IMG/VR virus record: IMGVR_UViG_3300014059_000004
From: a virus
Direction: 5' to 3' (one strand)
Length of the DNA: 64,000 nucleotides
Shown here in pieces: positions 2,750-21,385 of this stretch. Made by a program: the position numbers and the translations under genes. Within the stretch, counting starts at the first letter, position 1. The number at the start of each line of letters is the position of its first letter. Below the pieces are notes generated by a model, which had not been told where the DNA came from, ran no database searches, and saw nothing but the letters and a program-made list of their open reading frames with translations.

Positions 2750-3307
2750 ATGGAACTGTCGAAGGCTCGTAGCATCGGAGAATCCTTGCTCAAGCTCATC
2801 GGACCAGCAGTGAAGCGAGCAGAGATCGCTGGGTCAGTCCGCCGTGAGAAGGAGACAGTCAAAGACATCGAGCTTGTCATCATTGTTGATGATTACGAGG
2901 CTCTCTTTGGTGCTCTTCGGTCGCGAGGAAAGTTCATCAAGCCTGGCGTTCCTGACATCATCGAATGGCCACCAAAGGTTGGTGCGAAGTACCTGCGCCT
3001 CCTCCTTGAAGAAGGAATCAAGCTAGATGTCTTCGTGGCAACGCCGGCGAACTGGGGCTCGTTGCTGTGCATGAGAACTGGGTCTGCAACTGCACCAAAC
3101 GGTAACGTCCACGGTGGGTTTGTTCCGAAGATGTTTTCGATTTGGAAGAAAGTTTCTGGCGGCGGCCGGATGCTGGGTTGCTTGCCAACGCGGCCAGATG
3201 GCACACAAGTTCACGTTCCTGAGGAGCGAGATTTCTTCGATTTGCTCGGTGTCCAGTGGGTTGAACCGCGCGATCGAACAAGTTCAAAGGCAGTCAAAGC
3301 AAAATGA
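2750..3307 (+). CDS. minimal DNA polymerase X (Pol beta-like nucleotidyltransferase)
   Basis: GSVRREKETVKDIELVI nucleotidyltransferase motif (GS...D-x-D) and C-terminal FFDLLGVQWVEPRDR resembling Pol beta C-terminus (FDYIQWKYREPKDR); 185 aa like ASFV Pol X. Confidence 0.72.
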   Translation: MELSKARSIGESLLKLIGPAVKRAEIAGSVRREKETVKDIELVIIVDDYEALFGALRSRGKFIKPGVPDIIEWPPKVGAKYLRLLLEEGIKLDVFVATPANWGSLLCMRTGSATAPNGNVHGGFVPKMFSIWKKVSGGGRMLGCLPTRPDGTQVHVPEERDFFDLLGVQWVEPRDRTSSKAVKAK

Positions 3308-3567
3308 GGATTTCTATGGATGATATTTTCGCCACTCTTACGACTCTTTTCATAGTTGTCATCGTGGCCGGGTTGATCGCATGCAGCGTCTTCGTCATCA
3401 AAGCTGACGGTCGAACAGACTATTGCTTCATCACCCGCGCTGATTACACCGGCAGGTACTCGTTGATGGCAAATCGACAGTGGAGGTTCAACAGAGAGAT
3501 TCAGTCATCCATGTCGATCGATGATCTTCATGCAACTGCCAAAAAGCTGGAGTGCCCTCTCAAATGA
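3304..3567 (+). CDS. small membrane protein
   Basis: ATGA overlap with PolX stop; hydrophobic helix LTTLFIVVIVAGLIACSVFVI. Confidence 0.5.
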   Translation: MRISMDDIFATLTTLFIVVIVAGLIACSVFVIKADGRTDYCFITRADYTGRYSLMANRQWRFNREIQSSMSIDDLHATAKKLECPLK

Positions 3568-3761
3568 ACGACACGAGCCTGGAATCGCGAGCCAAAGTCA
3601 TCCTCGAAGGAATCGATGATGAGATCGCCGATTGGTTCATCGCAGGTTGCCCAAACGACTTGATGACGCACCTGGGAATGACCCCTCAAGAGTACGCAAC
3701 GTTCTTGTTCAAACCTCAGCGCTGGGCGATCGATTACGTCGTGTCTCTTCATGGAGAGTGA
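3564..3761 (+). CDS. hypothetical protein
   Basis: ATG 3564 overlaps upstream TGA (ATGA). Confidence 0.4.
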   Translation: MNDTSLESRAKVILEGIDDEIADWFIAGCPNDLMTHLGMTPQEYATFLFKPQRWAIDYVVSLHGE

Positions 3762-3978
3762 ATATCCAACACCAGGGATGCTGTTCATACCCAAGACAGA
3801 TGATCTACTTGAAACGTGGGTTGTTATATCAACCCGCGTTCACGTGGTCGATGGCGTTCAGAAGTACACGATCTGTTGGTTGAGCGCTCGGCAAGAGTTG
3901 TTCGTTGGGCTGCCGCAACGTTGGGCTGCCGCAACCTATCGATCTTGTGTCAATAGCGTACATGAAGGTGCTCTATGA
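3751..3978 (+). CDS. small paralog (PGxL N-terminal motif)
   Basis: N-term MESEYPTPGMLFIPKTDD; similar to following three ORFs. Confidence 0.4.
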   Translation: MESEYPTPGMLFIPKTDDLLETWVVISTRVHVVDGVQKYTICWLSARQELFVGLPQRWAAATYRSCVNSVHEGAL

Positions 3979-7055: not shown

Positions 7056-8266
7056 AATTTTTCGTACCTGCAGTTGGTTACCAGATCGTCCTCGCTGCTG
7101 ATTGGAACTTCTCGCTCTACCTCGAAGACAGGAACGACACGTGCCTGAAGCTCTTGGCGCCCAAAGTCTACGAGGATGTGAAAAGCAACTGGCACAATCG
7201 TTCCAAATCCGGAAAGGGCTGGCCGCTCGATTACAAGCACGAGTCTGTGATGCTGCCGAAAGGCACGAAGCTGGAGATCGATCGAGTTTACGTTCGAACT
7301 GCGAACAAGGCCAAGGAAGGATCTGACAACTACGATTCCATCACGTTCAAAGTTGTTGGCGAAAAATCGAAAGTTCGCTTCTGGGCGAAGCTCGAAGACG
7401 TCAACAACATCGAGTACGAGCTCCCAGACAACTTCACTGCAGGCAAAGAAGCTGCAGTGAAGGCAGCGAAGGCACCCAAGAAGCTGACGCTTAAGGATAT
7501 CACAACAACCATCGATGGCGCTTTGCACCTGTACGATCGGGAAGACAAGCGCAATTACCCGAAATGGTTGACAGCAACTGCGCAGGGTGAGATCAAGCAC
7601 CTGCTTGATACGTTCAATTCATTTGCAATTCCAATCAAGCGTGCCGAGAGTGAAGCTCGCCGGCAAGTTGCTGAGCGCGATGCAAAGTTGCGCTATGCAC
7701 AAGGTAACTTTCCTGCGTACTTGAAGACCACGATCAAATCTGTGGAAGAGTACGTGAAGTGGGACTTGCAGCACCGCAACTATAATCTCAGGTTGCAACC
7801 TGAGATTGATGACAAAGATCTCCGTGAAGATGCGGCTCGAGTCATCGCGTACCATCTTCTTAGTTACTACTGCGTTAGCAAGGTGCAGTTCAAGCGCAGA
7901 GCTGATGGTTCTGCAGTTCGAACGTGGTCATTTAAGGTCAGAGATAATGTTCCCACGCCGCCGAGCATCCATGCCATCGACGTGTCAAAGTATTGGTTGC
8001 AAGTCGCGGTCGATCCTACCGAGACAGAGATCGTCAGCTTCTCGTGCGGTGTGGACGGGAATCCTCCGCCAGTCGCTTTAGACCGCTCGGAGTTATCACG
8101 AGAAGCCCACGAATTAATTCGAGATAAACAAATGGTTAGTACTGTGGTATCATTTATCAGTAAATCGTGGGCTAACATCGACTGGGACAGCGTGTACTGC
8201 TGGCTCGTCGTTCCATGCACAGGAAGGATTCAAAGCAGATGTCGTTCATCAGATGGCCAGAGATAG
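7052..8266 (+). CDS. hypothetical protein (404 aa)
   Basis: GTGA coupling to upstream stop; long clean ORF. Confidence 0.55.
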   Translation: MKFFVPAVGYQIVLAADWNFSLYLEDRNDTCLKLLAPKVYEDVKSNWHNRSKSGKGWPLDYKHESVMLPKGTKLEIDRVYVRTANKAKEGSDNYDSITFKVVGEKSKVRFWAKLEDVNNIEYELPDNFTAGKEAAVKAAKAPKKLTLKDITTTIDGALHLYDREDKRNYPKWLTATAQGEIKHLLDTFNSFAIPIKRAESEARRQVAERDAKLRYAQGNFPAYLKTTIKSVEEYVKWDLQHRNYNLRLQPEIDDKDLREDAARVIAYHLLSYYCVSKVQFKRRADGSAVRTWSFKVRDNVPTPPSIHAIDVSKYWLQVAVDPTETEIVSFSCGVDGNPPPVALDRSELSREAHELIRDKQMVSTVVSFISKSWANIDWDSVYCWLVVPCTGRIQSRCRSSDGQR

Positions 8267-9237
8267 TCAACTTCCACACGCTTCGGAAGAACATCAGGAA
8301 CTACCCCCACATCGTGGGAGACGGTAACGTCACCTTCAGGCCCAAGGTGAAGCTTCATGGTGCCAATGCAGGGATCCAAGTCAGGCGAAAGGGCATCACA
8401 GTCCAGACCCGCGAGCAGTTCATCGCTCCTGGCAACGATTTTGCTGGGTTGGCAGCATGGGCTCACAGAGAATCGCAATCGTTTGTAGACACCGGTGCAG
8501 CAGTCGATAAAGTGATCTTCGGTGAATGGTGCGGACCTGGCATCAACAAGGGAACAGCATTGACGCAAGTCAGCAAGAAGTTCTTTGCTGTCTTTGCCGC
8601 TGCGACCCTAGACGCATTTGACAACGAAGAGTCGAAGCTGATCGTTGAACCTGACGAACTCGAGATGCTGGTCGCGGGCGTCCATGATGCGTACGTGCTT
8701 CCTTGGCACTCGAAGTCGTTCAACGTTAACATGTTGCACCATGCAAAAGATCTGCAACCCATCGTTGACAAGATAAACAGCGACGTTGCTGAAGTTGAGA
8801 GATGCGATCCCTGGGTAAAGTCCACGTTCCAAGTTGAGGGCGTCGGTGAAGGTCTCGTTTACTACCCACTGCCAACGACGGTGAAGACGTTCACGAACTT
8901 GGCTTTCAAGGCAAAGGGTGAAGCTCACAAGATCTTGACGCACGGAAAACCAGCGCAAGTTGATCCGGAAGTTGCCGCATCTGCAGCTGAGTTTGTCGCT
9001 CTCGTTCTGTCTGAAGCTCGCCTCGTGCAAGGTGTCGCCACGCTCGGTGGTGAATATCATCCGCGACTCACGGGACCGTTCTTGGCTTGGGTGTGCAAGG
9101 ACGTCTTCAAGGAAGCTCAAGCTGAGCTTGAAGCCAGCGGGTTGGAGTGGCACGACGTTCGTGGTCAGCTGCAAGCTGCTGCGCGTGCATGGTACTTGAA
9201 GAAGTGCAACGAAACGTTACGTCATGGTACAATCTAA
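8239..9237 (+). CDS. ATP-dependent RNA ligase, Rnl2-like (nick-sealing nucleotidyltransferase)
   Basis: Motif I KLHGAN (KxHGxN of Rnl2-type ligases), motif V-like AFKAKGEAHK; RBS aggaagga 10 nt before ATG 8239. Confidence 0.62.
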   Translation: MSFIRWPEIVNFHTLRKNIRNYPHIVGDGNVTFRPKVKLHGANAGIQVRRKGITVQTREQFIAPGNDFAGLAAWAHRESQSFVDTGAAVDKVIFGEWCGPGINKGTALTQVSKKFFAVFAAATLDAFDNEESKLIVEPDELEMLVAGVHDAYVLPWHSKSFNVNMLHHAKDLQPIVDKINSDVAEVERCDPWVKSTFQVEGVGEGLVYYPLPTTVKTFTNLAFKAKGEAHKILTHGKPAQVDPEVAASAAEFVALVLSEARLVQGVATLGGEYHPRLTGPFLAWVCKDVFKEAQAELEASGLEWHDVRGQLQAAARAWYLKKCNETLRHGTI

Positions 9238-9240
9238 GAA

Positions 9241-9412
9241 GATGCTACAACCTCACGTGGTTCTGTGCGACGGCATGAATTTTCTGCATCGAGCCCGAAG
9301 TGGATGGACAGGCGGTCCTGCGCCCGTCGTCTTCAACTTCATGAGGAACATCAGGTCTCTCGTGGAGACGCTATTCTTTGCCCCTCCAACACGGTTCGAT
9401 ATACTTAATTGA
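9241..9412 (+). pseudogene. orphan 5' fragment (about 57 codons) of the 5'-3' exonuclease gene, displaced by a homing-endonuclease insertion
   Basis: MLQPHVVLCDGMNFLHRARSGWTGGPAPVVFNFMRNIR aligns with N-terminus of the full FEN gene at 10075; ends ...DIL then stop overlapping the endonuclease ATG; GC-rich backbone-like composition. Confidence 0.6.
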
Positions 9413-10096
9413 ATGAGATATGTTTATCTGATTCAGAATCTAATCAACGGGAAAGTATATGTTGGGCAAACGAAAAATTTTTCCAATAGAAAAGCAGGAC
9501 ATTTGTATTCTGCCAAGAAAGGTGATCTTCGACCTCTTTACTGTTCCATCCGAAAATATGGTCATGAAAATTTCGAGTTTCGAATTCTAGAAGAGTGTGA
9601 TGATCATGAGTGTGATGATCGTGAAATTTATTGGATATCACATTATGATTCGTTTAACATCGATAGAGGTTATAATCTGACGCGTGGAGGAGAAGGATCT
9701 ACGGGTTGCGTTGTTTCGATAGAAACTCGTCAGAAAATGAGTGATAAACACCGCGGAAAACCTAAGTCACTAGAACATCGCCAGGCAATTTCTCGTGCAA
9801 GACTTGGTTGGGAAGGTTTGCGTGGCGCTAGAAATCCAAATTTCGGAACACATCTTACTGATCAAGCACGTAAAAAAATTAGTGAGCATGCTAAACTACG
9901 GATTGGAGTGAAAAATCCAAATTGTTCATTGACTGAAGATGATGTTAAGGGAATCAAGTATCAATTGTCAATTGGAACTAGAGTTTGTGACATTGTGAAA
10001 CTGTTCAATATTAGTCGTTCTCAAGTAAATCGGATTAAGCTTAACAAGCAATGGAAGCACGTAACAATAGAATTATGCGTCCTCATATTTGTCTAG
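9413..10096 (+). CDS. GIY-YIG homing endonuclease with NUMOD3-type DNA-binding repeats
   Basis: YVYLIQNLINGKVYVGQT...R...H GIY-YIG core; repeated ETRQKMSDKHRGK / EHRQAISRARLG / DQARKKISEHAK NUMOD-like motifs; strongly AT-rich versus flanks. Confidence 0.85.
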   Translation: MRYVYLIQNLINGKVYVGQTKNFSNRKAGHLYSAKKGDLRPLYCSIRKYGHENFEFRILEECDDHECDDREIYWISHYDSFNIDRGYNLTRGGEGSTGCVVSIETRQKMSDKHRGKPKSLEHRQAISRARLGWEGLRGARNPNFGTHLTDQARKKISEHAKLRIGVKNPNCSLTEDDVKGIKYQLSIGTRVCDIVKLFNISRSQVNRIKLNKQWKHVTIELCVLIFV

Positions 10097-11244
10097 TAGA
10101 TGGGATGAATTTTTTGCACCGGTCTAGAACTGGCTGGACAGCTGGTCCAGCTCCTGTAGTTTTTAATTTTTTTCGTAACATACGAGCACTAGTAGAAAAA
10201 CTTGATATCAGTCGCTTGTATTTCGTGCTTGAAGGCCATCCGCAAGCTCGTCACGATATCTTGCCGCAATACAAAGCGAACCGCATCGTAGAAGCCGGCA
10301 CCAAAGAGCACGATGAGATGGTGAAGTTCTTCAGCCAGGTCGACGAGATAGTCGGGTTGCTGGCTGGTTCTTTTCCGTTCTCTGTCGTGCGTCATCCTCA
10401 CCACGAGTGCGATGACACAATCTACAACCTCATCAAGCGTGGCACACGAGCCGTGAAGTGGACAGTTGTATCGAACGATTCTGACTTCACGCAGCTCCTA
10501 GATGAATTTGAGGGCGTCAGCATCTACAACCCCATGAAGAAGGCTTACGTTGAGCAAGCTCCCGCTGATTACGTTACATGGAAGGCTCTTCGTGGAGATC
10601 CAACAGACAACATCCCAAAGATCATTACGGATGGTGCTGCTACGGCGCTGATGGACGACCCGGATGCGTTGAAGGAGTTCTTCAATGATCCTGCTAATAA
10701 AGAAGCCTTTCGAAAGAACTATTCGCTCATCAAGTTCACCACGTGGTCTGACGAAGAGGCGCATGGCATGACGTCTTCGCAACCGACCAAAGATTGGGCG
10801 CCAGTCCGCTCTACGTTCGAGAAGTACGGCTTTAAGTCGCTTCTGAAAGATGAAGCTTGGGGAAAGTTCACTGCGACGTTTGATCACCTTTGGGGTGAAT
10901 ACTTACTCGTTATGAAGATCAAGCTTCGCGAGCTTAAGTCGATGATCAGAACGATTCTCACCGAGGGAATGACATCATTTGATGGCTGGAACGTCGGTGA
11001 CTGGGTGAAGTTGCCAGGCGGTGCTGTCGTTCAGATCGCTTCGTTTGAAGATACGCCGTCGACTGGTGGTAGCTACGTCACGTGCCGGACAACTGACGGC
11101 CGAGCTCAACGCGCTGACTACATGTTTGCAGACGCAGTGAAGCCAACGCCAGAAGAGATCAAGTCTTGGTCGAAGCACAAGAAATCTTCTGCTCGGCGCG
11201 AAGCTGATTACTACGCGAAGCACGGAACTCGCGGCGAATTCTGA
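10075..11244 (+). CDS. 5'-3' exonuclease / flap endonuclease (FEN, T4 RNase H / Pol I 5'-nuclease family)
   Basis: DGMNFLHR, QYKANR, ECDDTI, VVSNDSDFTQL motifs; first about 45 codons AT-rich like the endonuclease, remainder backbone-like. Confidence 0.8.
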   Translation: MRPHICLVDGMNFLHRSRTGWTAGPAPVVFNFFRNIRALVEKLDISRLYFVLEGHPQARHDILPQYKANRIVEAGTKEHDEMVKFFSQVDEIVGLLAGSFPFSVVRHPHHECDDTIYNLIKRGTRAVKWTVVSNDSDFTQLLDEFEGVSIYNPMKKAYVEQAPADYVTWKALRGDPTDNIPKIITDGAATALMDDPDALKEFFNDPANKEAFRKNYSLIKFTTWSDEEAHGMTSSQPTKDWAPVRSTFEKYGFKSLLKDEAWGKFTATFDHLWGEYLLVMKIKLRELKSMIRTILTEGMTSFDGWNVGDWVKLPGGAVVQIASFEDTPSTGGSYVTCRTTDGRAQRADYMFADAVKPTPEEIKSWSKHKKSSARREADYYAKHGTRGEF

Positions 11245-11783: not shown

Positions 11784-12614
11784 ATGCATCAATCAGTCAT
11801 AGATGCTTTCAGCAGCTTCACGGGCCGCTTCGAAGGCGTCGTTGAGCACATGTACCTAGACGTCAAAGGCCTGGTGACGATCGCTCGGGGAAACCTGATC
11901 GATCCGATCTCTATGGCTACTTCGTTGCCATTTGAAAGGAAGTCTGGCGGGCTGGCACCGCCGGGTGAAATTGCTACAGAGTGGCACAACGTTAAAGCTA
12001 GGACAGATCTCGCGCTGAAGGGTGCTCCTTCGTTCAGGGCTATCACGGCTCTAAAGCTGTCTCAGAAATCTTGCGACGACCTGGTCAGGCGCAGGCTCCT
12101 AGAGATGGAAGCTCACGTCAAGAAGCGCTTCCCTGAGTTTGATTCATGGCCCGCAGATGCTCAGCTTGGGATCATGAGCATGTCTTGGGCTATGGGATCT
12201 GGCTTCAACTTTCCACGCTTCGAAGCCGCTGTGAAGAAGAAAGACTTCTTGACTGCAGCGGCAACGTGCAAGATGAATGAAGCAGGAAATCCCGGCTTGA
12301 AGCCTCGCAACGAGGCAAATGTAATCTTGTTCACCAACGCTGCTCGAGTTCTTGAAGAACCAGACACGTACCCCGCTATGACGCTTCACTGGCCTGACAA
12401 ACTTCCAGATCATCCTCTGATCCCAGTTGTCATCGAAGAGCCAGAGCCTGAAGTAAAAACTCAACCGTCAGTTGATATAATTGTGCCTGAGCCGCCTCCT
12501 GCACCTCTCCCAACACCAGATGCAAAAGGTTTCTTGGCGATCTTGTTCAACGCTGTCAAGTTCTTGATCTCAATGCTAACAGGGAAGAAGCTATTATGTA
12601 CGTACCAAAGCTAG
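11784..12614 (+). CDS. GH24 (T4-type) lysozyme with Pro-rich linker and C-terminal hydrophobic segment
   Basis: FEGVVEHMYLDVKGLVTIARG (E...D...TIG catalytic region) and ADAQLGIMSMSWAMGSGFNFPRFEAAVKKKDFLTAAATCKMN matching T4 lysozyme C-lobe; C-term PEPPPAPLPTP then GFLAILFNAVKFLISMLTG. Confidence 0.65.
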   Translation: MHQSVIDAFSSFTGRFEGVVEHMYLDVKGLVTIARGNLIDPISMATSLPFERKSGGLAPPGEIATEWHNVKARTDLALKGAPSFRAITALKLSQKSCDDLVRRRLLEMEAHVKKRFPEFDSWPADAQLGIMSMSWAMGSGFNFPRFEAAVKKKDFLTAAATCKMNEAGNPGLKPRNEANVILFTNAARVLEEPDTYPAMTLHWPDKLPDHPLIPVVIEEPEPEVKTQPSVDIIVPEPPPAPLPTPDAKGFLAILFNAVKFLISMLTGKKLLCTYQS

Positions 12615-13402
12615 GCGGCTGGAAAGCCGACCACGAAGATCCAGATCATGACGCAAGCAAGAACTACGTCTTTGCGGATAATATCTCTAAGTTCGCAGCT
12701 GCATCACCAGCTAGCGCTCCGCAAGAGGTCGACGGCGTCCTAGATCTGCGCCAGTGGTGCTCACCGGTCGAGGATCAGGGAGCTATAGGAAGTTGTACGG
12801 GCAACGGTGTCGTTGGGGCTCTCGAGTTTCTTCAGATCCGCAACGGCAAACCTTTCGTAGACCTGTCTAGGATGTTCGTCTACTACAATGCTCGTTTGAT
12901 GTCACGAATGCAAGATCGCGATGAGGGTGCTTACATTCACATGGCGTTCGGAACGCTGTCATCGTTGGGAACTTGTGCAGAAGAAAAGTGGCCTTATGAC
13001 ACCAGCAAGGTCTTCATTCGACCGTCTTGGGGTTCTTACAGGGACGCTTACGTCAACAAAATTGACAGCTACTATTCTATCGGTGGATCTGGTCAAGCGC
13101 AGAAAAACTACATCATCTCTGCGCTGCAAGCAAGCCATCCGATCGTCTTTGGCATGACTGTCGATAAAGATTACATGGCGTACCGCGGCGGTCCACCCGT
13201 TGCGATGCCAAAGTCCGTTAGGGCCGGCGCTGGAGGTCACTGCCAAGTGATCGTAGGCTACGATCTTGGAAGAGAGCTGTGGTTGGTTCGCAACTCTTGG
13301 GGAACTTGGTGGGGAGATGATGGTTACGCTTGGGTGCCGTTTAAGTACCTAGACGAAAGCTCTGCAAACAGCTTTTGGGTACCGTTTTTGGAGGGTACAT
13401 GA
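12596..13402 (+). CDS. papain-like cysteine peptidase (C1 family)
   Basis: DLRQWCSPVEDQGAIGSC (Q/C catalytic region), HCQVIVGYD (His), NSWGTWWGDDGY (Asn/Trp). Confidence 0.8.
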   Translation: MYVPKLGGWKADHEDPDHDASKNYVFADNISKFAAASPASAPQEVDGVLDLRQWCSPVEDQGAIGSCTGNGVVGALEFLQIRNGKPFVDLSRMFVYYNARLMSRMQDRDEGAYIHMAFGTLSSLGTCAEEKWPYDTSKVFIRPSWGSYRDAYVNKIDSYYSIGGSGQAQKNYIISALQASHPIVFGMTVDKDYMAYRGGPPVAMPKSVRAGAGGHCQVIVGYDLGRELWLVRNSWGTWWGDDGYAWVPFKYLDESSANSFWVPFLEGT

Positions 13403-13722
13403 GCGATCAACAGCTGCTGAAAGAGTACGTCTCAACTATCATTGCTGAGCTCAAGCTTGACACAAAGTTCATCGCCCGGCTAAAGAGGCACATGGCGCCG
13501 TCGCTAGCATCAAATGGTCGCACTGCTGCCGTTTTCTGGATCAGAAAGACAGAAGAGATCAATGATGAACCTCTGCCTGATAATATCAGACGTGAGATCA
13601 TCGATTATGCATCTTCAAAGTACGCGAAGCTATTCCGCAAGCACAACAATGATTTCAAGGAAACAGATTCAGCGCTTGTTGGGCTCATCAATGCTAAGTT
13701 TGGGTACTTGAGAGAAATTTGA
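13399..13722 (+). CDS. hypothetical protein
   Basis: ATGA coupling with protease stop; RBS ggaggg. Confidence 0.45.
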   Translation: MSDQQLLKEYVSTIIAELKLDTKFIARLKRHMAPSLASNGRTAAVFWIRKTEEINDEPLPDNIRREIIDYASSKYAKLFRKHNNDFKETDSALVGLINAKFGYLREI

Positions 13723-13729
13723 GAGAATA

Positions 13730-14104
13730 ATGAAAAAATTGGGCGCAGTATCTATCCTTCTCATTACGTTGATTATTTCTGGGTGCCCTCGTGGGTCCAA
13801 CGTAACACCTCAACCGCCAGTTGTGACCGATACGGGTGACTGCCAGGCTGCATGTGATCGTCTCAACAGCTTGGGTTGCGAAGAGGGCCGTGATATCGAC
13901 ATGAAGAGGTTGTGCGCTGACACTGGTGATTGTGACTTGGGTCATGGTTGCGTAGCGAACCACTGCGTGGCAACGTGCAGCGTGTTCTGCCGTGATACGC
14001 AAGCAGCAGGCGTTTGGCTCGCTCCGTCTTGCGTCAAGAACATAACGAGCTGCGATCAGATCGAATCATGTCCACTTCCAGAACCAAAGAAGTTAAGCTT
14101 CTGA
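13730..14104 (+). CDS. Cys-rich lipoprotein
   Basis: Signal peptide with lipobox LIISGC; 14 Cys. Confidence 0.55.
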   Translation: MKKLGAVSILLITLIISGCPRGSNVTPQPPVVTDTGDCQAACDRLNSLGCEEGRDIDMKRLCADTGDCDLGHGCVANHCVATCSVFCRDTQAAGVWLAPSCVKNITSCDQIESCPLPEPKKLSF

Positions 14105-14577
14105 AGCAGCTCATCCGTGAGATGTTGACAGATCCTCGACCGCCGATAACAAACGTCGAAGTGGGTGGTTCGTTGGCAAATGACGAAGAAGACGAGACGC
14201 TCGCAGCTTTGAATGCCCCGCGAGCTGCATGCGTTCTTGTTAGGAACCCAAACGGAAAGATCTTGGCAGTCTCTAGGAAAGATGATCCAAACGATTTTGG
14301 ATTGCCGGGTGGGAAAGTGGATCCTGGTGAGGTTGAGGTTGAAGCCGCTGCAAGAGAGCTTGAAGAAGAGACTGGTTACACTGCTGTAAATCTAACAAAA
14401 GTGTTCTCGCAGAAAGATGATGCTGGTTACTTCGTGACGACTTACTCTTGCTCAGTCATGGGTAACGTTGACACTGATGAATCTGGTGTGGTGAAGTGGG
14501 TTGAACCCGCTGTTCTCCTGCAAGGATCTTTCAGCGACTACAATCGAAAGCTGTTCAAGAGGGTGGGAATCCTATGA
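14068..14577 (+). CDS. Nudix hydrolase
   Basis: Nudix box GLPGGKVDPGEVEVEAAARELEEETG. Confidence 0.75.
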   Translation: MSTSRTKEVKLLKQLIREMLTDPRPPITNVEVGGSLANDEEDETLAALNAPRAACVLVRNPNGKILAVSRKDDPNDFGLPGGKVDPGEVEVEAAARELEEETGYTAVNLTKVFSQKDDAGYFVTTYSCSVMGNVDTDESGVVKWVEPAVLLQGSFSDYNRKLFKRVGIL

Positions 14578-15248: not shown

Positions 15249-15272
15249 ACTTGCTCAGCTAGACGAATTACA

Positions 15273-15719
15273 ATGTTGGCAAGTGGTATGATACCGCTAG
15301 CAAGTCCTCACAGTCTCATACAAGAATCTCTATGGCCCAATGAATGGCTCGTCCTCGTCAGCTGCATCATGCTGAACCGGACGAAGAGAACGCAGGTAGA
15401 AAAGATCCTACCTGAATTCATGTCTCGTTGGTCAACGCCTGAGAAGTACTTGGAGAGCTCCCCAGCTGAAGTCGCTGACTTGATCCGGTCGCTTGGATTC
15501 AAGAATCGTCGCGAAGCCACGATCAGGTCAATGACAAAGGCTTACGTGAGCAAATCTTGGTCAGATGCCCGGGAGCTGCCCGGTATCGGTGAGTACGGTT
15601 GGAGATCATGGAAGATGTTCTTCCAATGCGATGTGGGTAGCTACCGCCCGTCAGACGGTGCGTTGGGCATATACTACGACTGGATAAAGAAACATGAGCA
15701 ACGCAAAGAAGATCGCTGA
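15273..15719 (+). CDS. HhH-GPD DNA glycosylase, MBD4 catalytic-domain-like (mismatch T/U glycosylase family)
   Basis: LIQESLWPNEWLVLVSCIMLNRT...SPAEVADLIRSLGFKNRREATI...LPGIGEYGWRSWKMF...YYDWIKKHE parallels MBD4 glycosylase domain. Confidence 0.68.
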   Translation: MLASGMIPLASPHSLIQESLWPNEWLVLVSCIMLNRTKRTQVEKILPEFMSRWSTPEKYLESSPAEVADLIRSLGFKNRREATIRSMTKAYVSKSWSDARELPGIGEYGWRSWKMFFQCDVGSYRPSDGALGIYYDWIKKHEQRKEDR

Positions 15720-16023
15720 ACGCGTTAAAGAGAAAGCGCCGAAGGCTCCACGAAAGAAGAGAGTGAAGATCGATCCAAAGACAGTGCCTGCGATCGCTGA
15801 CGGCGTGCTGCTAGCACCAGTTGGTAGCAAGATCTTGGTGACTCGGTTGCGCCATGCTCGTCCTCACACTTCATCTTGCGAGATTCACAAGATCGATGAA
15901 GATGGAACGATCCACGCGTGGGACGAGACGCTCAACCAGTGGTTTCTCTTCAAGGCATCAGACAATGTCGATGTCAGGTTCTACAATGCCGCGGCTGCTG
16001 GTGCTGCTGCGCTGGAGGGATGA
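15694..16023 (+). CDS. small basic protein
   Basis: 109 aa ORF ending adjacent to next ATG. Confidence 0.45.
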   Translation: MSNAKKIAERVKEKAPKAPRKKRVKIDPKTVPAIADGVLLAPVGSKILVTRLRHARPHTSSCEIHKIDEDGTIHAWDETLNQWFLFKASDNVDVRFYNAAAAGAAALEG

Positions 16024-16839
16024 ATGCCCGAGGGTGTTGAAGTCACGTTGAGCGTCGAAGAGATCAACAACCTGTTCAGCGGTGAGATCATTCGTGCCGT
16101 TCAGCTGCACAACACTGGTCGTTACTCTTCGAAAGAGCCCGCTGGTTACCAAAATTTCGCTTCTGCTGTTCGTGATGGCTACATGATGGAAGCAGCTCGC
16201 GTAAAGGGAAAGTTCTCATGGTGGACGTTCAAGAAAGATCTTGAGCCCGATTGGTACATGATGTGCACCTACGGGATGACGGGAAAGTGGACGACGCGGC
16301 CCATGGCTGGGCACGCCGTCATGTCAATCATGTCTGATGAGTTGACAACGACGTTCATTGACCAGCGTCGATTCGGGACGTTGAGCTTCACGTCTTCTGC
16401 TGAAGCGCTAGCTTCAAAGCTGAAGTCAATAGGTCCTGACATGCTTAACGCACCACCGGATGATGAAGAATTCATCGAGCGCATGATGTTCAAGAGCAAT
16501 CGAACGATCGCTGAAGCTCTGATGGACCAAAGCTGCGTCTCTGGCGTCGGCAATTACTTGAAGTGTGAATCTTTGTATGCTGCGAAGATATCACCGCATC
16601 GTCCAGTTTCGTCGCTAACCCACGAAGACTTTGCTGACCTACGATCAGCTATCATAATGATGATGAACCTATCGTACGAGCTCGGTGGGGCTTACTCAGT
16701 GGGTCCGGATGGCACATCATGGATATCAGACAGATTTTCAGTGTACAATCAAGTCACTGATCCTCATGGATTCCCAGTAGAAAAAAAAGCGACCGCTGAC
16801 GGTCGAACAACTTACTGGTGTCCAAAAAGACAGAAGTAG
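16024..16839 (+). CDS. Fpg/Nei family DNA glycosylase / AP lyase
   Basis: N-terminal MPEGVEV (catalytic Pro2-Glu3), DQRRFG, H2TH region LMDQSCVSGVGNYLKCESLYAAKISP, C-terminal YWCPKRQ zinc-finger-like. Confidence 0.8.
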   Translation: MPEGVEVTLSVEEINNLFSGEIIRAVQLHNTGRYSSKEPAGYQNFASAVRDGYMMEAARVKGKFSWWTFKKDLEPDWYMMCTYGMTGKWTTRPMAGHAVMSIMSDELTTTFIDQRRFGTLSFTSSAEALASKLKSIGPDMLNAPPDDEEFIERMMFKSNRTIAEALMDQSCVSGVGNYLKCESLYAAKISPHRPVSSLTHEDFADLRSAIIMMMNLSYELGGAYSVGPDGTSWISDRFSVYNQVTDPHGFPVEKKATADGRTTYWCPKRQK

Positions 16840-16842
16840 AAG

Positions 16843-17175
16843 ATGGAAAAAGTAGCACCGCGCTATTCTCCTGACATGGTCAGAGAGAACGTTCAGCGCA
16901 ACATTGAAAGACTATTCGCTGGGTACAGCGCTGGAAGACCGGCGAACTGGTCATGTGATGTCAGAACTAAAGAAGTGATAACGACTGCTAACTGGCTCGG
17001 TGAAGAGCTCCAGCGCATTGGCCTAGACGATGCTGGAGCCAAAGTTCAGAACGCGCAGTTCAACAGAAGGGTTCGTTCAGAAGAAGATTTGTGGTCAATT
17101 GCGTCCCAAATTTTGAACGATGCGCTGGATGGCAACGTTGACAGGAACAGGAGACCTCATCGACGATGGAGCTAA
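16843..17175 (+). CDS. hypothetical protein
   Basis: 110 aa ORF. Confidence 0.45.
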   Translation: MEKVAPRYSPDMVRENVQRNIERLFAGYSAGRPANWSCDVRTKEVITTANWLGEELQRIGLDDAGAKVQNAQFNRRVRSEEDLWSIASQILNDALDGNVDRNRRPHRRWS

Positions 17176-17414
17176 GCCCAGTAAGCGAATTCGTTGCACG
17201 TTTTACGTTGAAGGTGACGCAATTGATAGAAACAGAATTGTGTTACGTTTCTTGGGATACGTTTGTTCAGAACGACAGCGGCACACGTGGTGTAATTCTG
17301 AAAAAGAACACGATGTGCATCCTCACGCACTTGGGACCAGATTACGCAAAAGTCATCGTTCCTTCGTTGGGTGATTCTTTCTTCGTGCTTCGAACCTTCA
17401 TAAGGCACCTATGA
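17166..17414 (+). CDS. hypothetical small protein
   Basis: Coupled at both ends (overlaps upstream stop; TGA overlaps 17411 ATG). Confidence 0.4.
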   Translation: MELSPVSEFVARFTLKVTQLIETELCYVSWDTFVQNDSGTRGVILKKNTMCILTHLGPDYAKVIVPSLGDSFFVLRTFIRHL

Positions 17415-18328
17415 TGAGACGTAAGAACAGCAACATGCTGCTGCGCATTGCGCAAGCAGATGCATTGGCGTTGGGCATCGAATTCATCGATAAAGAGAAG
17501 CATGGCGAGCTTTTTGAAGCTGTTGGCTCTATGAATCGTTACGTTCAGCACCCAACGTACGAGCTGATGAAACCGGGCTGGTACTCAGATGATACCCAGC
17601 AGAGCATTGCGATCGCAGAGTTGCTGTGCACCAGCGAATCACCCAGCGCCGTTGATTTTGTTGGCAAATTTTGGGAAGTTCATGCAAGAGATCCACGCGA
17701 TGGTTACAGCAGAGCGATGCAAGAGCTACTAGAGTCTTCGAAGAACGGTGATGAGCTGAAGCTGAAGCTTCAACCAAATTCCGACAAGAACGGTGCAGCG
17801 ATGCGCTCGGTTCCCATAGGCGTCATCAAAGATCCAGATGCCGTCGTTCGCTACGCTGGGTTGCAAGCAGCTACGACGCATGCCACGTGGGGTGGCATCA
17901 ACTCCTCGATCGCTGTTGCATTGATGTCGCATTATGCCCTCTACGATCGTCGAGATTTTAATCACATGCTAGGATGGTGTAGCCGTTACCTAGATTCTTT
18001 TGATTATTTCTCGAAGCCCTGGGAGGGCCCTGTGAAGGCTCGACCGAAGCAGCCGGGGGATCGTGGCCTCGGTTGGAACACGGCTTGGGCTGTTCATACG
18101 TTGCTTGTCGAAGAAAAATCGCTAGCGGGTATCATGTCTCGAGTTGCGAGCTGGGGTGGTGACACAGACTCTGTCGCTGCGATCGCATGGGGCATTGCAT
18201 CTGCACGCTACTCTGACGAAGTGTTGCCGAGCTTCCTTGAAACCGACCTTGAAGCTAGCCGTGATGGTAACTACGGTGTACAGTTCCTCAAGGATCTTGG
18301 TGAGCAGCTGATGTGCAAGTACGCTTGA
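17411..18328 (+). CDS. ADP-ribosylglycohydrolase (ARH/DraG family)
   Basis: ADALALG, YSDDTQ, NGAAMR, TTHATWGG, SWGGDTDSVAAIAWGIA motifs. Confidence 0.75.
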   Translation: MMRRKNSNMLLRIAQADALALGIEFIDKEKHGELFEAVGSMNRYVQHPTYELMKPGWYSDDTQQSIAIAELLCTSESPSAVDFVGKFWEVHARDPRDGYSRAMQELLESSKNGDELKLKLQPNSDKNGAAMRSVPIGVIKDPDAVVRYAGLQAATTHATWGGINSSIAVALMSHYALYDRRDFNHMLGWCSRYLDSFDYFSKPWEGPVKARPKQPGDRGLGWNTAWAVHTLLVEEKSLAGIMSRVASWGGDTDSVAAIAWGIASARYSDEVLPSFLETDLEASRDGNYGVQFLKDLGEQLMCKYA

Positions 18329-18332
18329 AGCT

Positions 18333-20225
18333 GTGGCTTGTAAAATAGCTGATCTGCAGGGTACATTTCAACTTATGGCACCAAGCACCAAAGCCAAGAA
18401 ATCTGTCATCGATAGCATCACGACGTTCCACAGCACTTTGAAAGTGAAGGTGTCAGATCTAAGGAACATCCAAGAAGAGCACGGCGACATGTGTTGCACG
18501 TTCATCGACGATGTTGTTCATGAGTATGACAATTGCGGCGAGGCAAAAGAGTGCAGCCAGTGCAAGGCGATGAACGATAATGACGCTCGTTTCTGCAAGC
18601 GGTGCGCTTACCCACAAGCAGGTTACGAGTTCATCAGCATCCCAAAGATCTATTGGTCAGATGTTGAAAACACTGCAAAGAATTCTTTTGAGAACGTAGT
18701 CATCAAGAAGCTTGTACCCCTGACAACGGGTCGAGCATTCTTCATCATGACGTACGTCAATCCAGATTATGAGCACGTTACAAAAGTCGTGGGGGCGGCG
18801 ATCGTAGACGGGAAGTACGAAGAGTGCGACGTGACTTTCACGTCGAAAGCAAACAAGCGAGTTCGTTACAACGTTGAACTTTTAGCACCACGAGACAAAA
18901 TGACTGAAAAGAACAAGACGCTAGTGACGCAAGTTAGAGATTTCTTCAACGTGAGCAAGGTGAAGCAAGTCATCCACGTTGGAACTGACATCTTTCAAGC
19001 ATCAACGCCTTTCTTGGAAGATCCCACCTGGTGGAACGGTTTGAAGAGCAGCTTCTCGATCTCCAAAGTGCTCATCGAGCAGTTTGAAGTGTGGGGAGAT
19101 GATTTCTTCTCTAGCGATGAGTGGTCTGCACCTTACAGCAGGGACTTCAACTCTACGATCATCAAGGTCGTCAGTCGCTATCCTTACGAGAACATTCGCA
19201 CCAACGATGATGCTACGATCATTCGCATGATCGATGCCGATGGCATCAAGATGGGTTACACGATGAACACCCGTCTCAACGTTCCTGGCAACATCTACGT
19301 TGATACTGCGAAGCTGAAAGAGGCTCAAGCTCTCATCAAGAAGATCTTGTGGGAATCGTTGAAAGATTCAAACCTCGTCATGAGGCAGAACAAGCGCGTT
19401 GGAACGTCTGACGATGATTCTAGGATCGTGTTTGAATCTGACGATGCCTTTCATCCCCTTGCATCTGAGAGAGCAACTTCGTACGCAGCATACTTGAAGC
19501 GGTGCATCGACGCTGACGTGCCGCGGTCAGTGATGCTGTACGGTCCGCCGGGGACTGGAAAGTCTACGATGGCTCGAACCATCGTGGAGAACCTTGGCAT
19601 GCGCAGCTTCCGAATTCGCGTTGAGGATGTTGCTAACCTTGAGAGCTCTACGCTCTTTGAGGCTATCACGATCTTTGAACCCGATGCAATCATCTTGGAT
19701 GACTTTGACAGAGCGCATGCGCAGGCGCAGCTGCTCGAGACGCTCGAGTTCTTCCAGAGGCACGTGAAGCTTGTCATCGCAACTGTCAACAATCGTAACA
19801 GTCTTGATGAGGCAATCCTTCGCCCTGGTCGCTTCGATGAGATGTTGTTTGTGAAGACAATGGACGGTGATGTTGTCAGGTCGATCCTTGGAACTTACGC
19901 TGATGAGGCTTACGAGCTCGTCAAGAATTGGCCCATCGCCTTCATCCAAGAGTACGTGAAGAGGCGTCGGTTCATGTCTGCCGCTGAAGCATCTGAGTCT
20001 ACGATCGAGCTCTCGAAGCGTGTTGCTCGCCTCGAGAAGTACGAGGATGATCCAGCGCCTGAAGTGACAACACTTGATGATCACTCTATGAAGACTGATC
20101 CGCCCGATAACGGTCCTATCACTGAAGATCTTGAAGGTGAAGAGAACGAAGAAGGAGGCGGCCCCGAGGGCGACGCCCCTTTTTGTCCACCGCTAGAAAC
20201 CTTAGTGATCTTACTACGAAGCTAG
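18333..20225 (+). CDS. AAA+ ATPase with N-terminal Cys-cluster (zinc-ribbon-like) region
   Basis: Walker A LYGPPGTGKST, Walker B AIILDDFD, SRH ILRPGRFDE; CSQCKAMNDNDARFCKRC; acidic C-terminus. Confidence 0.75.
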   Translation: MACKIADLQGTFQLMAPSTKAKKSVIDSITTFHSTLKVKVSDLRNIQEEHGDMCCTFIDDVVHEYDNCGEAKECSQCKAMNDNDARFCKRCAYPQAGYEFISIPKIYWSDVENTAKNSFENVVIKKLVPLTTGRAFFIMTYVNPDYEHVTKVVGAAIVDGKYEECDVTFTSKANKRVRYNVELLAPRDKMTEKNKTLVTQVRDFFNVSKVKQVIHVGTDIFQASTPFLEDPTWWNGLKSSFSISKVLIEQFEVWGDDFFSSDEWSAPYSRDFNSTIIKVVSRYPYENIRTNDDATIIRMIDADGIKMGYTMNTRLNVPGNIYVDTAKLKEAQALIKKILWESLKDSNLVMRQNKRVGTSDDDSRIVFESDDAFHPLASERATSYAAYLKRCIDADVPRSVMLYGPPGTGKSTMARTIVENLGMRSFRIRVEDVANLESSTLFEAITIFEPDAIILDDFDRAHAQAQLLETLEFFQRHVKLVIATVNNRNSLDEAILRPGRFDEMLFVKTMDGDVVRSILGTYADEAYELVKNWPIAFIQEYVKRRRFMSAAEASESTIELSKRVARLEKYEDDPAPEVTTLDDHSMKTDPPDNGPITEDLEGEENEEGGGPEGDAPFCPPLETLVILLRS

Positions 20226-20419
20226 AATGGGTTCAGTCTGAACAAAAAGGAGAATTTAAGCCCGCGCCCTTGAAGCCTGTTACGCCCGCGCAGCTGAAGA
20301 AATTTTACGCTCAACTGCGTCTACAGTATCCTGGGAAGATTGGTATTGCAAAGGTCAGTGAGGCTAGAGAGTTCAACAAGATGCTGAAAAAGCTAGTGTT
20401 TGGCAACAAGAAGAAGTGA
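20183..20419 (+). CDS. possible small protein
   Basis: 78 aa ORF overlapping 3' end of AAA+ gene; weak. Confidence 0.25.
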   Translation: MSTARNLSDLTTKLEWVQSEQKGEFKPAPLKPVTPAQLKKFYAQLRLQYPGKIGIAKVSEAREFNKMLKKLVFGNKKK

Positions 20420-20452
20420 AACTTTGATCTGCACAGATGTAAGATTGAATCA

Positions 20453-21385
20453 ATGCTAGGCGTTTGCTGCCATTGGCTTAAGTCTCACGTGCAACCACGC
20501 ACGGGTAACACTGTTCTCGTCAATGAGATGTCTGAACGTACGTTGCAGCTGGGAAGGTTCCAGCGCGGCGCGTACACTGACGAGCAGATCCGTGTTACGT
20601 ACATCAGCAACATCAAGAACCTCGCTGCGATGATACCCAAGGTGTCAGCAGCGGGGATTCGTCTATTTCGAATTTCGTCATCTCTGTTCCCGCTTGCTGA
20701 TAAAGTGCCTCGCAAGACGTGGGACAATCCTGCGGTTCGTGCAGAGTTGCAGCGTGCTGGCACAGCAGCAATCTCACGTGGTATACGGTTGACAACGCAC
20801 CCAGGTCAGTTCTGCGTCATATCGTCCGATTCTGACCGCGTTGTTGAGAATTCTTTCAACGAGTTGTCACTTCATGGCTGGATCTTTGATGCCATGGGTC
20901 TCCCGCGGTCGCCGCACGCAGCAATCAACATTCACGGTGGTAAGGGTGACCGTCATTCACGGCTCGTTGATGGCATTCGTTCGTTGCCACAGTCTGTTCG
21001 GTCTAGGCTTACGCTTGAGAACGATGAGTCAGCGTACTCTGTCGTCGACTTGCTACCCGTCTACAAGGAAACTGGCGTGCCGATCGTGTGGGATTCGCAC
21101 CATCATACGTTCAACGACGGCGAGCTAACTGCTGACGAAGCGTTCAATGTAACACAGTTGACATGGCCGAAAGGTGTGATACCTCTTCAGCACATATCAA
21201 ACACTGAGCCTTCATTGTTGAACGGTTCATTTATTGACAGGAGGAAGCATAGCGACTACATCCATCATGTTCCTGATTGTCAGCTCCGTGGGCTTAGGGA
21301 TGATACAATCGCCGTAGAAGTCGAAGCTAAGCACAAGAATCTTAGCGTTGACCTCATGGCATCGATGTTCAACATACCTAAATGA
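20453..21385 (+). CDS. uvdE: UV damage endonuclease UvdE
   Basis: RISSSLFP, THPGQF, INIHGGKGDR, LTLENDESAYSV, PIVWDSHHH motifs of UvdE/TIM-barrel AP endonuclease family. Confidence 0.8.
   Translation: MLGVCCHWLKSHVQPRTGNTVLVNEMSERTLQLGRFQRGAYTDEQIRVTYISNIKNLAAMIPKVSAAGIRLFRISSSLFPLADKVPRKTWDNPAVRAELQRAGTAAISRGIRLTTHPGQFCVISSDSDRVVENSFNELSLHGWIFDAMGLPRSPHAAINIHGGKGDRHSRLVDGIRSLPQSVRSRLTLENDESAYSVVDLLPVYKETGVPIVWDSHHHTFNDGELTADEAFNVTQLTWPKGVIPLQHISNTEPSLLNGSFIDRRKHSDYIHHVPDCQLRGLRDDTIAVEVEAKHKNLSVDLMASMFNIPK

Follow-up and report, generated by a model that had tools for sequence, protein, structure and literature searches.

Linked MBD4-type and NEIL1-like glycosylases mark a probable DNA-lesion repair module in an uncultured virus of prokaryotes

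Can a virus of bacteria repair its DNA with a base-excision repair (BER) pathway of its own? This question is raised by a viral sequence of 64,000 nucleotides (IMG/VR record IMGVR_UViG_3300014059_000004), which at its full length is called the window in the following and which carries a set of DNA-repair genes between positions 2750 and 21385. Virus-encoded BER is documented for African swine fever virus (ASFV) and for giant viruses of eukaryotes, and the usual view of phages is that they bring no more than one lesion-specific enzyme and otherwise depend on their host. An original prediction, made from the sequence alone, had read nine genes of this region as a near-complete and self-sufficient BER kit. 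Our answer is narrower, as we consider it probable that the region holds an inherited DNA-lesion repair module, which would share its FEN-type nuclease with replication and depend on another ligase. The core of this module is best read as a linked pair of an MBD4-type and a NEIL1-type glycosylase, with the UV-damage endonuclease UvdE and a minimal family-X polymerase (mini-PolX) extending it in some lineages.

All nine genes were found on the plus strand at the predicted positions in a Pfam profile search, and Pfam, PHROG, and PDB matches confirmed each assignment at the family level. Three of the predicted starts (8239, 10075, and 14068) are internal ATG codons of open reading frames (ORFs) that open at 8215, 10051, and 14014. 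PHROGs families exist for the ligase, the exonuclease, the Nudix hydrolase, Fpg, UvdE, and the ADP-ribosylglycohydrolase (ARH), and there is none for PolX or the MBD4-like protein. The block and its six repair genes are as follows:

1–24 kb, plus strand: nucleic-acid-metabolism block, a co-directional and tightly packed gene array
2750–3307, plus strand: predicted mini-PolX, 185 aa, palm and thumb (Pfam, phmmer against PDB chains, motifs, AlphaFold2 (AF2), and Foldseek)
8239–9237 (ORF opens at 8215), plus strand: predicted Rnl2-type RNA ligase (PF09414, 48 bits; phrog_548)
10075–11244 (ORF opens at 10051), plus strand: 5'-3' exonuclease/FEN of the 53EXO, PIN-like type (PF02739, phrog_107)
15273–15719, plus strand: MBD4-type HhH-GPD DNA glycosylase (MBD4L), 148 aa (HhH-GPD, 41 bits; MBD4 in the PDB)
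16024–16839, plus strand: Fpg/Nei bifunctional glycosylase/AP (apurinic/apyrimidinic) lyase, here called Nei (three Pfam domains; PDB 3a42/3a45/3vk7)
20453–21385, plus strand: UvdE/UVDE UV-damage endonuclease, a Nfo-like TIM barrel (PF03851, TIGR00629, PDB)

A family-profile scan detected MBD4L on 59 IMG/VR viral contigs, many of them 100–370 kb long. We compared 58 non-redundant sequences, made up of the IMG/VR loci and the window, by tblastn of the window proteins and by ORF clustering, and viewed the related loci within 10 kb on either side of MBD4L. The gene order u332–PolX–(Rnl2)–FEN–u154–(C1 peptidase)–Nudix–MBD4L–u109–Nei–u110–ARH–AAA–UvdE–u107–GroEL, in which u107, u109, and u110 stand for proteins of 107, 109, and 110 aa, recurs at approximately 35–60% amino-acid identity. 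As related contigs keep the same genes in the same order at this degree of divergence, the repair gene cluster is more than chance. FEN lies at most 10 kb from MBD4L in 55 of the 58 sequences, and clustering or tblastn placed Nei near MBD4L in 32–34 loci, Nudix in 26–32, AAA+ in 16–17, PolX in 16, ARH in eight, UvdE in six, and Rnl2 in five, with GroEL syntenic in 14–17. All six repair genes occur together only in the window and its twin, an 81.6-kb IMG/VR viral contig with a protein identity to the window of 97–100%; five of them are found in two relatives and four in six. The original prediction had left it to be checked whether homologous phages carry the set, and the IMG/VR relatives do carry overlapping sets.

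The order of the two glycosylase genes is strictly kept. In all 30 non-redundant loci having both, the two genes are on one strand with MBD4L as the upstream member, and in nine loci they adjoin or overlap each other, with a spacing of −16 to +67 nt. These nine loci form a second contig set with other neighbours, namely ClpP, a DnaB-like helicase, RecA, and a gp32-like single-strand-binding protein, as well as ribonucleotide reductase, ThyX, and a dUTPase_2-NT5C fusion. Such strict linkage argues for a partnership between glycosylase and AP lyase.

Residues 8–143 of MBD4L align without gaps to the whole glycosylase domain of human and mouse MBD4 in the PDB (E = 2e-19), and the protein consists of this domain only, without a methyl-CpG-binding domain. 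It belongs to the same HhH-GPD subfamily as human MBD4, likewise lacks the cysteines of an Fe-S cluster, and shares with it an identity of roughly 35%, as estimated from the alignment. The helix-hairpin-helix LPGIG is at residues 102–106, and in the ungapped alignment with 4dk9 the catalytic Asp is D128, equivalent to D560 of human MBD4. D128 is invariant in 77 of 77 MBD4L homologues, and so are the equivalents of Q449 (Q17) and Y540 (Y108). The equivalent of R468 is an Arg (R36) in the window protein and a Cys in 56 of the 77 homologues, and K562 and L508 are replaced by Ala and Phe, respectively. We also considered an inactive MBD4L that had lost the Asp of a 'GND' motif (GWR in this protein), an idea that was dropped because the catalytic D560 is the Asp of 'HPED' and corresponds to the invariant D128. 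Distant relatives are present in 17 phage records, including the group of Xanthomonas phage Xp12, with approximately 28% identity to the Xp12 protein. As only one MBD4L locus, with FEN close by, turned up in a pattern scan that covered 185,579 species genomes of bacteria and archaea, the MBD4-like family appears to be essentially virus-borne.

Nei matches Fapy_DNA_glyco (48 bits) and H2TH (PF06831, 58.6 bits), together with PF21025 at 22.8 bits, which is below the cutoff of 27. Its closest solved relatives over residues 1–270 are the chains 3a42/3a45/3a46/3vk7 (E = 2e-34), which we take to be Mimivirus Nei1 (MvNei1); bacterial Fpg followed with 1e-17 or weaker. The N-terminus MPEGVEV provides the Pro2 nucleophile and Glu3, MPEGPEV being the commonest N-terminus among 32 family members, and the motifs KGKF and GVGNY[LV] are conserved in the family. 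There is only one Cys in the last 45 residues, where GRTTYW aligns with RTTYW of the 3a45 chain, and the C-terminal part is mostly Cys-free throughout the family. Given this Cys-poor finger and the GRTTYW/RTTYW alignment, the Nei sequence fits the zincless NEIL1/MvNei1 subgroup and not the classical four-Cys Fpg.

The 2750 protein is less obvious from profiles, as its only Pfam match is DNA_pol_B_thumb with 25.1 bits against a cutoff of 25. However, residues 3–114 align to the palm of Thermus thermophilus PolX in a phmmer search of PDB chains (E = 3e-6), and 37 homologues show little or no variation in the elements GS-x9-D39xE41, D93, the RTGS hinge, and the C-terminal EExDFFxLL..W..P..R. The residues of the nucleotidyltransferase motif (G28, S29, D39-I-E41, and D93) are invariant in all 37, and D39, E41, and D93 are the putative catalytic residues. 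The AF2 model has a predicted confidence score (pLDDT) of 96.6, and its best Foldseek matches in the PDB are all family-X polymerases, namely T. thermophilus PolX and Pol lambda, with query-normalised template-modelling (TM) scores of 0.63–0.73 and a probability of 1.0. On the basis of these motifs, the confident model, and the family-X-only best matches, we read the 2750 protein as a real PolX cut down to palm and thumb. In the model, a single helix is followed directly by the palm, without the 8-kDa deoxyribose-phosphate (dRP)-lyase domain and the fingers (D) subdomain, and the alignments accordingly begin at residue 164 of T. thermophilus PolX, in its palm. The original prediction had named the reassignment of several genes in profile searches as the outcome that would undo it; every gene call was kept at the family level, PolX on the strength of its motifs, AF2, and Foldseek.

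In the viral structure library BFVD, the best named matches of mini-PolX are PolX proteins of giant viruses. ASFV PolX ranks only 20th (TM 0.28) and is absent from the matches of the PDB phmmer search; mini-PolX is thus not specifically related to it. The mini form is widespread, as a profile search returned 3,037 clusters (50% identity) at E ≤ 1e-10, the best 150 of which are nearly all 156–290 aa long. These relatives are almost entirely metagenome proteins; ten Rhizobium phage records hold a distant homologue of 24–27% identity that is annotated as family X. A 2022 review of phage polymerases lists ASFV as the only viral entry of family X. The palm-plus-thumb architecture, known there from ASFV PolX alone, has been called "the only known exception" (PMC5537341). 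If our assignment is correct, ASFV PolX would no longer be the sole minimal PolX; the phage enzyme is one of a family that counts over 3,000 sequence clusters. Template-directed gap filling by mini-PolX is what we infer from its family.

UvdE is clearly recognised by PF03851 (179.9 bits, E = 8e-53, profile positions 8–274 of 275) and TIGR00629 (136.7 bits, above the cutoff of 124.45), and its metal-site motifs HPGQ, LENDE, and D-x-HH are aligned with those of 3tc3 and 2j6v in the PDB (E ~1e-25).

FEN and the ligase have to be judged differently. FEN matches PF02739 (5_3_exonuc_N; 61.3 bits, cutoff 34.3) and phrog_107 (E = 1e-22), with the H3TH (SAM-fold) domain PF01367 at 17.4 bits, under its cutoff of 40, and relatives occur in 62 phage records. 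By its domains, it would be an ordinary phage 5'-3' exonuclease/RNase H replication nuclease and not specific for BER. With 397 aa, it is longer than the FEN proteins of related loci (median 286 aa) due to a C-terminal extension of about 110 aa that is missing from the relatives, and no family match was found for these residues. The 8239 protein was predicted to be an Rnl2-type nick-sealing ligase; its Rnl2 family was confirmed, and its role in sealing nicks is not supported. The phrog_548 profile 'RNA ligase' spans its residues 9–332 in full length (E = 7e-37), which fits the start at 8239, and its best solved relative is T4 Rnl2 (2hvq), which aligns with query residues 43–303, including the C-terminal domain. 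By inspection, the lysine motif KLHGAN is followed by FGEW, EGLV, and FKAKG, and relatives in 151 phage records are annotated as RNA ligase in nearly all cases. In five loci the gene is close to FEN. Judged from these features, the protein is an Rnl2 RNA ligase and not a DNA ligase; it shares the adenylyltransferase motifs and the Rnl2-type C-terminal domain with T4 Rnl2 and Deinococcus DraRnl. Rnl2 enzymes require ribonucleotides on the 3'-OH side of the nick, and a role of the phage ligase in DNA repair would need such a nick ribonucleotide.

How complete can the pathway then be? Within the block, there are candidates for lesion recognition (MBD4L, Nei, and UvdE), for AP-site cleavage (the Nei lyase), and for processing of gaps and flaps (mini-PolX and FEN). 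We scanned the window ORFs and the 17 kb upstream on the twin contig, approximately 81 kb in total, and detected in them no DNA ligase, no Xth/Nfo AP endonuclease, no 3'-phosphatase, and no dRP-lyase domain; the upstream 17 kb contained a Nudix gene, GIY-YIG genes, a sub-threshold cytidylyltransferase-like match, a CN-hydrolase, DUF7487, and uncharacterised ORFs. A full virus-encoded BER is thus not found in this sequence, and the claim of self-sufficiency is overstated, all the more as PolX lacks the dRP-lyase and FEN is not BER-specific. Some of the missing steps have a candidate, as UVDE enzymes are reported to cut AP sites and to remove 3'-blocking groups, and as they share the TIM-barrel fold of Nfo (PMC8307549). 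UvdE could, by analogy, cover AP incision and the cleaning of 3' ends.

The scheme that we propose takes the domain content from the sequences and the biochemistry from the named families. The MBD4-type glycosylase would take out T, U, or 5-substituted uracil opposite G and leave an AP site. Nei, as a NEIL1/MvNei1-type enzyme, would excise oxidised bases, and its Pro2 Schiff-base lyase would cut AP sites, including those made by MBD4L, to give a one-nucleotide gap with a blocked 3' end. UvdE would nick 5' of UV photoproducts and might also cut AP sites and clear 3' blocks, as a stand-in for the missing Xth/Nfo. The short gap would be filled by mini-PolX, and FEN would remove lesion-bearing or displaced 5' flaps, like Rad2/FEN-1 after Uve1 in Schizosaccharomyces pombe. 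Sealing would be left to the host LigA, to a phage DNA ligase encoded beyond the sequence seen, or, less likely, to Rnl2.

Several points weigh against a repair module. The repair genes are interrupted by unrelated ones (a GIY-YIG/NUMOD3 homing endonuclease, a lysozyme-like protein, a papain-family peptidase, a lipoprotein-like ORF, and several uncharacterised ORFs), and 12 kb separate PolX from the glycosylases. DNA ligase and 3'-phosphatase are missing from the scanned sequence, FEN and Rnl2 have well-known roles outside repair, and the second catalytic carboxylate of mini-PolX is a Glu (DxE) instead of the canonical DxD. As PolX, UvdE, and Rnl2 are near MBD4L in just 16, 6, and 5 of approximately 58 loci, the full set may have accumulated in a particular lineage rather than form an obligatory pathway, and the view of 10 kb to either side makes absences weak evidence.

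One alternative, which we consider unlikely, is that there is no pathway and that independent accessory genes share one early/middle nucleic-acid block of large phages. FEN would then serve replication and Rnl2 RNA repair, Nudix and ARH would act in conflicts over NAD or ADP-ribose, and glycosylases and nucleases would separately feed host repair. The interspersed genes and the patchiness of the set would fit, and so would the occurrence of each gene's relatives singly in unrelated phage records, the sporadic distribution of UvdE in a jumbo-phage survey (PMC7824862), and an ADP-ribose theme suggested by a second Nudix and a cytidylyltransferase-like gene upstream and by a Macro-domain gene in a relative. 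However, the fact that MBD4L and Nei keep their order and strand in all 30 loci and abut in the second contig set is hard to explain without functional coupling, gene order is held at 35–60% protein identity, and PolX, UvdE, and Nei have no known role beyond repair.

A more far-reaching alternative, which we regard as quite unlikely, is a big-phage BER in which the MBD4-/NEIL1-type pair acts against deamination products, PolX inserts ribonucleotides, and Rnl2 seals, which would amount to an RNA-ligase-dependent DNA repair. Its motive would be modified cytosines of the phage or DNA deaminases of the host, and we give this motive, jointly with the sealing by Rnl2, the same low credence. Two further readings overlap with it.

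The first of these, a fully self-sufficient phage BER as originally predicted, in which Rnl2 would have to seal the final nick, seems very improbable to us; its likeliest route would be the insertion of a ribonucleotide by mini-PolX, giving a 3'-ribo nick. Every other step has a candidate enzyme once the reported activities of UvdE are counted, and among the genes tracked, PolX, Rnl2, and FEN follow one another directly in the related locus L051, and Rnl2 and FEN do so in L047. A 3' ribonucleotide is preferred or required by the non-homologous end-joining ligases of bacteria and by Deinococcus DraRnl. In mini-PolX, by a reading of the motif and not of a structural alignment, Met-Arg takes the place of the sugar-discriminating segment Tyr271-Phe272 that precedes TGS in Pol beta. 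This and the gene order in L051 are weak hints, and sugar selectivity is not readable from sequence. Moreover, Rnl2 is of the typical phage type, with relatives in many phages that show no sign of a repair set; it is near MBD4L in only five loci and co-occurs with PolX just in the window, the twin, and L051. A DNA ligase may also sit in the remainder of the genome.

The second of these, which we find highly doubtful, is a guard against deaminated and possibly modified cytosines, or a counter-defence. MBD4L and Nei would mainly remove T or 5-substituted U opposite G, arising from 5-methylcytosine (5mC) or modified cytosine in phage DNA or from host DNA deaminases, and ARH or Macro proteins would reverse ADP-ribosylation of DNA or protein. 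MBD4 is a glycosylase for T:G mismatches and 5mC deamination, and distant MBD4L homologues are found in Xanthomonas phage Xp12 and its relatives, where in Xp12 the gene is directly upstream of a HAD hydrolase, a thymidylate-synthase homologue, a dCMP deaminase, and a dihydrofolate reductase. Xp12 DNA carries 5mC (PMC7653180), and a T:G glycosylase would make sense in such a genome; the link suggests a role in protecting 5mC genomes from deamination. A gene for a UDP-sugar pyrophosphorylase at most 10 kb from MBD4L in 20 non-redundant loci, immediately upstream in L014 (8496–9566; PF01704, E = 6e-22), might mean that these phages modify DNA or the cell envelope with sugars. Against this stand the low identity to the Xp12 protein and a specificity deduced from few residues, with the R468 equivalent mostly Cys. 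The window lacks thymidylate-synthase-like, dCMP-deaminase, and DNA-methyltransferase genes, and the four Xp12 proteins (thymidylate-synthase homologue, dCMP deaminase, dihydrofolate reductase, and HAD hydrolase) as queries against the window and all loci gave one weak match. Neither CpG depletion (rho 1.06 in the window) nor avoidance of palindromic restriction sites was observed, and the matches of PADLOC models to ARH, AAA+, Nudix, and the repair genes did not go beyond the level of P-loop or fold and included nothing specific. A modified-cytosine genome of the window phage is therefore unsupported, as 5mC-pathway genes are missing, CpG is not depleted, and palindromes are not avoided. The other rationale of the original prediction, a host under heavy oxidative or UV stress, likewise finds no support in these results.

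An origin of the window from a eukaryotic giant virus or a bacterial chromosome was also considered and was rejected based on gene density, 4-nt overlaps, Shine-Dalgarno (SD)-like motifs, PHROG matches, and IMG/VR membership. Approximately 95% of the first 24 kb of the window is coding, with numerous 4-nt start/stop overlaps, and SD-like motifs precede 39% of the starts in this part in comparison to 13 ± 6% at random positions. With its PHROG matches and homing endonucleases, the window looks like a virus of a prokaryote, and its first 24 kb are probably part of an uncultured large tailed phage (jumbo phage). No structural or packaging genes (capsid, terminase) were seen in the window. When the 18.6-kb region was compared by megablast with 50,697 phage records, no match resulted, and a tblastn search of the phage records with the best-conserved protein of the clade (739–1734) found nothing, so that these searches identified no cultured relative.

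The preferred reading of an inherited repair module can be compared with known systems, and the original prediction aptly likened the gene set to those of ASFV and giant viruses, as Nei is nearest to 3a42/3a45 and mini-PolX to giant-virus PolX. ASFV encodes a DNA ligase of its own and is not known to have a glycosylase, whereas the phage set comprises two glycosylases and lacks a recognisable DNA ligase, and the catalytic motifs of the polymerases differ (DxE in the phage, DxD in ASFV). ASFV BER (PolX O174L, the class II AP endonuclease pE296R, and the DNA ligase) is alike in its minimal PolX without the 8-kDa domain and fingers (PMC5537341) and in its Nfo-class endonuclease, as the UvdE type found in the phage has been described as Nfo-like (PMC8307549).

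With Mimivirus, the phage shares the Nei motifs MPEGxEV, KGKF, and RTTYW, if the matched chains are indeed MvNei1, and with giant viruses in general it shares the structural resemblance of its PolX. Giant-virus BER comprises MvNei1/MvNei2, a uracil-DNA glycosylase (UDG), an AP endonuclease, PolX, and an NAD-dependent ligase, with a PolX-ligase fusion in Phaeocystis globosa virus (PgV). The differences are protist hosts versus bacteria, the UDG of Mimivirus versus the MBD4-type enzyme, an Xth/APE1-type endonuclease versus UvdE, the full Pol-beta core versus 185 aa, and an NAD-dependent DNA ligase versus an RNA ligase. The pairing of bifunctional glycosylases and AP endonucleases with a PolX that lacks the dRP-lyase lysine is again common to both (PMC5537341).

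The UVDE repair of S. pombe (Uve1, Rad2/FEN-1, polymerase, and ligase) resembles the phage set in that the phage encodes UvdE, a FEN-family nuclease, and a polymerase together. The yeast pathway is cellular and uses a replicative polymerase and ligase I, whereas the phage has a FEN of the bacterial/phage 53EXO type and mini-PolX as its polymerase. Cultured phages have lesion-specific enzymes as well, such as T4 endonuclease V and Fpg in the Bacillus phages SP-10 and G, and UvdE is known from jumbo phages of Erwinia, Aeromonas, Vibrio, and Dickeya (PMC7824862). Bacillus phage SP-15 gave a UvdE match, and its host string also occurs in the Fpg match summary. In contrast to the window, however, the repair enzymes of cultured phages are single or at most paired. 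The view that the gene set is unusual for a phage consequently holds for the combination and not for its parts: taken singly, relatives are present in 107 (UvdE), 34 (Fpg), 17 (MBD4-like), and 10 (PolX-like) phage records, and no phage record in the collection matched PolX, MBD4-like, Nei, and UvdE together. The searchable literature described no phage family-X polymerase or multi-enzyme BER set, and we regard the set as a phage-borne variant of ASFV/giant-virus BER that is not described there, though its single genes are scattered in phage records.

If this reading is true, the concept of virus-encoded BER would reach bacterial viruses, and a whole clade of large phages would keep a multi-enzyme excision-repair module of MBD4-type and NEIL1-type glycosylases, UvdE, and mini-PolX, with FEN shared with replication. 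The 148-aa MBD4-like glycosylase and the 185-aa PolX would provide two compact enzymes for biochemistry and possibly tools. The kinship of phage Nei with Mimivirus Nei1 and the resemblance of mini-PolX to giant-virus PolX would also bear on the origin of giant-virus repair genes.

The block contains further genes that accompany the repair genes:

9224–9412, plus strand: 62-aa ORF that copies the N-terminus of the FEN gene (translation, DNA alignment)
9413–10096, plus strand: GIY-YIG/NUMOD3 homing endonuclease between ligase and FEN (GIY-YIG 43 bits, NUMOD3 33 bits)
14068–14577 (ORF opens at 14014), plus strand: Nudix hydrolase with intact Nudix box (PF00293, 73 bits)
15694–16023, plus strand: 109-aa protein (u109) between MBD4L and Nei (cluster in 25 non-redundant sequences)
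16843–17175, plus strand: 110-aa protein (u110; tblastn matches in 10 loci)
17411–18328, plus strand: ARH of the ARH3/DraG type (PF03747, 117 bits)
18333–20225, plus strand: classical AAA+ ATPase, 630 aa, with a long N-terminal region (PF00004, 61 bits)
21731–23356, plus strand: GroEL-type chaperonin, 541 aa (PF00118, 212 bits)

The 62-aa ORF and the start of FEN share approximately 74% nucleotide identity over a 231-column alignment and diverge past the first ~170 nt. The relatives L047 and L051 have no GIY-YIG match between Rnl2 and FEN. The arrangement at 9224–10096 is probably what an insertion or co-conversion of the homing endonuclease has left behind, and about ten related loci have GIY-YIG genes as well.

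The u109 cluster is located directly downstream of MBD4L in all 25 sequences. The protein has a basic N-terminal tail and a conserved domain of ~60 aa (WDET..QW[FY].F); no family match was found, and a word search gave a single near-identical homologue. In those of its 10 loci that have ARH or AAA+, u110 is directly upstream of them. GroEL is the downstream boundary of the conserved block and not a repair gene. The pair of the 107-aa protein u107 and GroEL (window 21411–23356) is kept in 11–13 related loci, and no GroES-like match was seen there.

Nudix, ARH, and AAA+ travel with the block, and any role of theirs in repair would be hypothetical. The Nudix protein gave weak, non-specific matches to the NCBIfam models MutT, NudE, and RppH, all under their cutoffs, and AAA+ matched only generic FtsH, PAN, and CDC48 P-loops. 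ARH is similar to ARH3 in the PDB (E = 2e-11) and is encoded downstream of Fpg. Between the MBD4L and Fpg genes of the relative L005 (80 kb) there is a Macro-domain gene (11788–12252), and a homologue of ARH was not detected at this locus; Macro and ARH enzyme types both remove ADP-ribose. On the twin (L002, 3987–5992), about 1.3–3.3 kb before window position 1, there are a second Nudix, a GIY-YIG gene, and a sub-threshold cytidylyltransferase/HIGH-motif match, and L003 has a similar Nudix/nucleotidyltransferase pair, which may point to NAD or ADP-ribose metabolism. Taken together, the ARH3-like ARH, the Macro gene, and the upstream Nudix and cytidylyltransferase-like genes suggest an ADP-ribose/NAD theme, perhaps separate from repair.

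Within the repair block, three further proteins are encoded at 11784–14104: one of 276 aa is lysozyme-like, one of 268 aa is a papain-family C1 peptidase, and one of 124 aa is Cys-rich and carries a lipoprotein-type signal peptide. The latter two are present in 7–8 relatives as well. The best-conserved protein of the clade is encoded at 739–1737 and reaches up to 75% identity in relatives; its C-terminal half is highly acidic, and it gave no Pfam, PHROG, or cultured-phage match. An ORF in another frame (1361–2041) overlaps it and is kept in 22 sequences, which makes the gene model uncertain here.

Outside the block, the minus strand encodes at 31335–34079 a protein of 913 aa that is homologous to the major vault protein (MVP) of eukaryotes; its Pfam matches are MVP_shoulder (106 bits), the Vault repeats, and SPFH/Band-7. 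Its residues 519–843 align to MVP in the PDB (E = 2.5e-20), it lies in a GC-rich island (0.55–0.57 versus 0.49 elsewhere), and its only relatives in the phage collection are three uncultured records of 462–735 kb (LR756500, LR756501, and LR756503) with 45% identity. It is followed at 34100–52600 on the minus strand by ~60 packed small ORFs (70–125 aa), mostly with 4-nt start/stop overlaps and with no ORF of at least 150 aa on either strand, and this array resembles the regions that large lytic phages use early or for host takeover. A tRNA-Leu(TAA) at 55062–55144 on the minus strand adjoins a homing-endonuclease-like ORF. The last part of the window (52000–64000; GC 0.54–0.57) encodes an AAA_5 (MoxR/dynein-like) ATPase at 57952–59283 (phrog_1297, E = 1e-52), and another homing endonuclease is found at 63104–63847.

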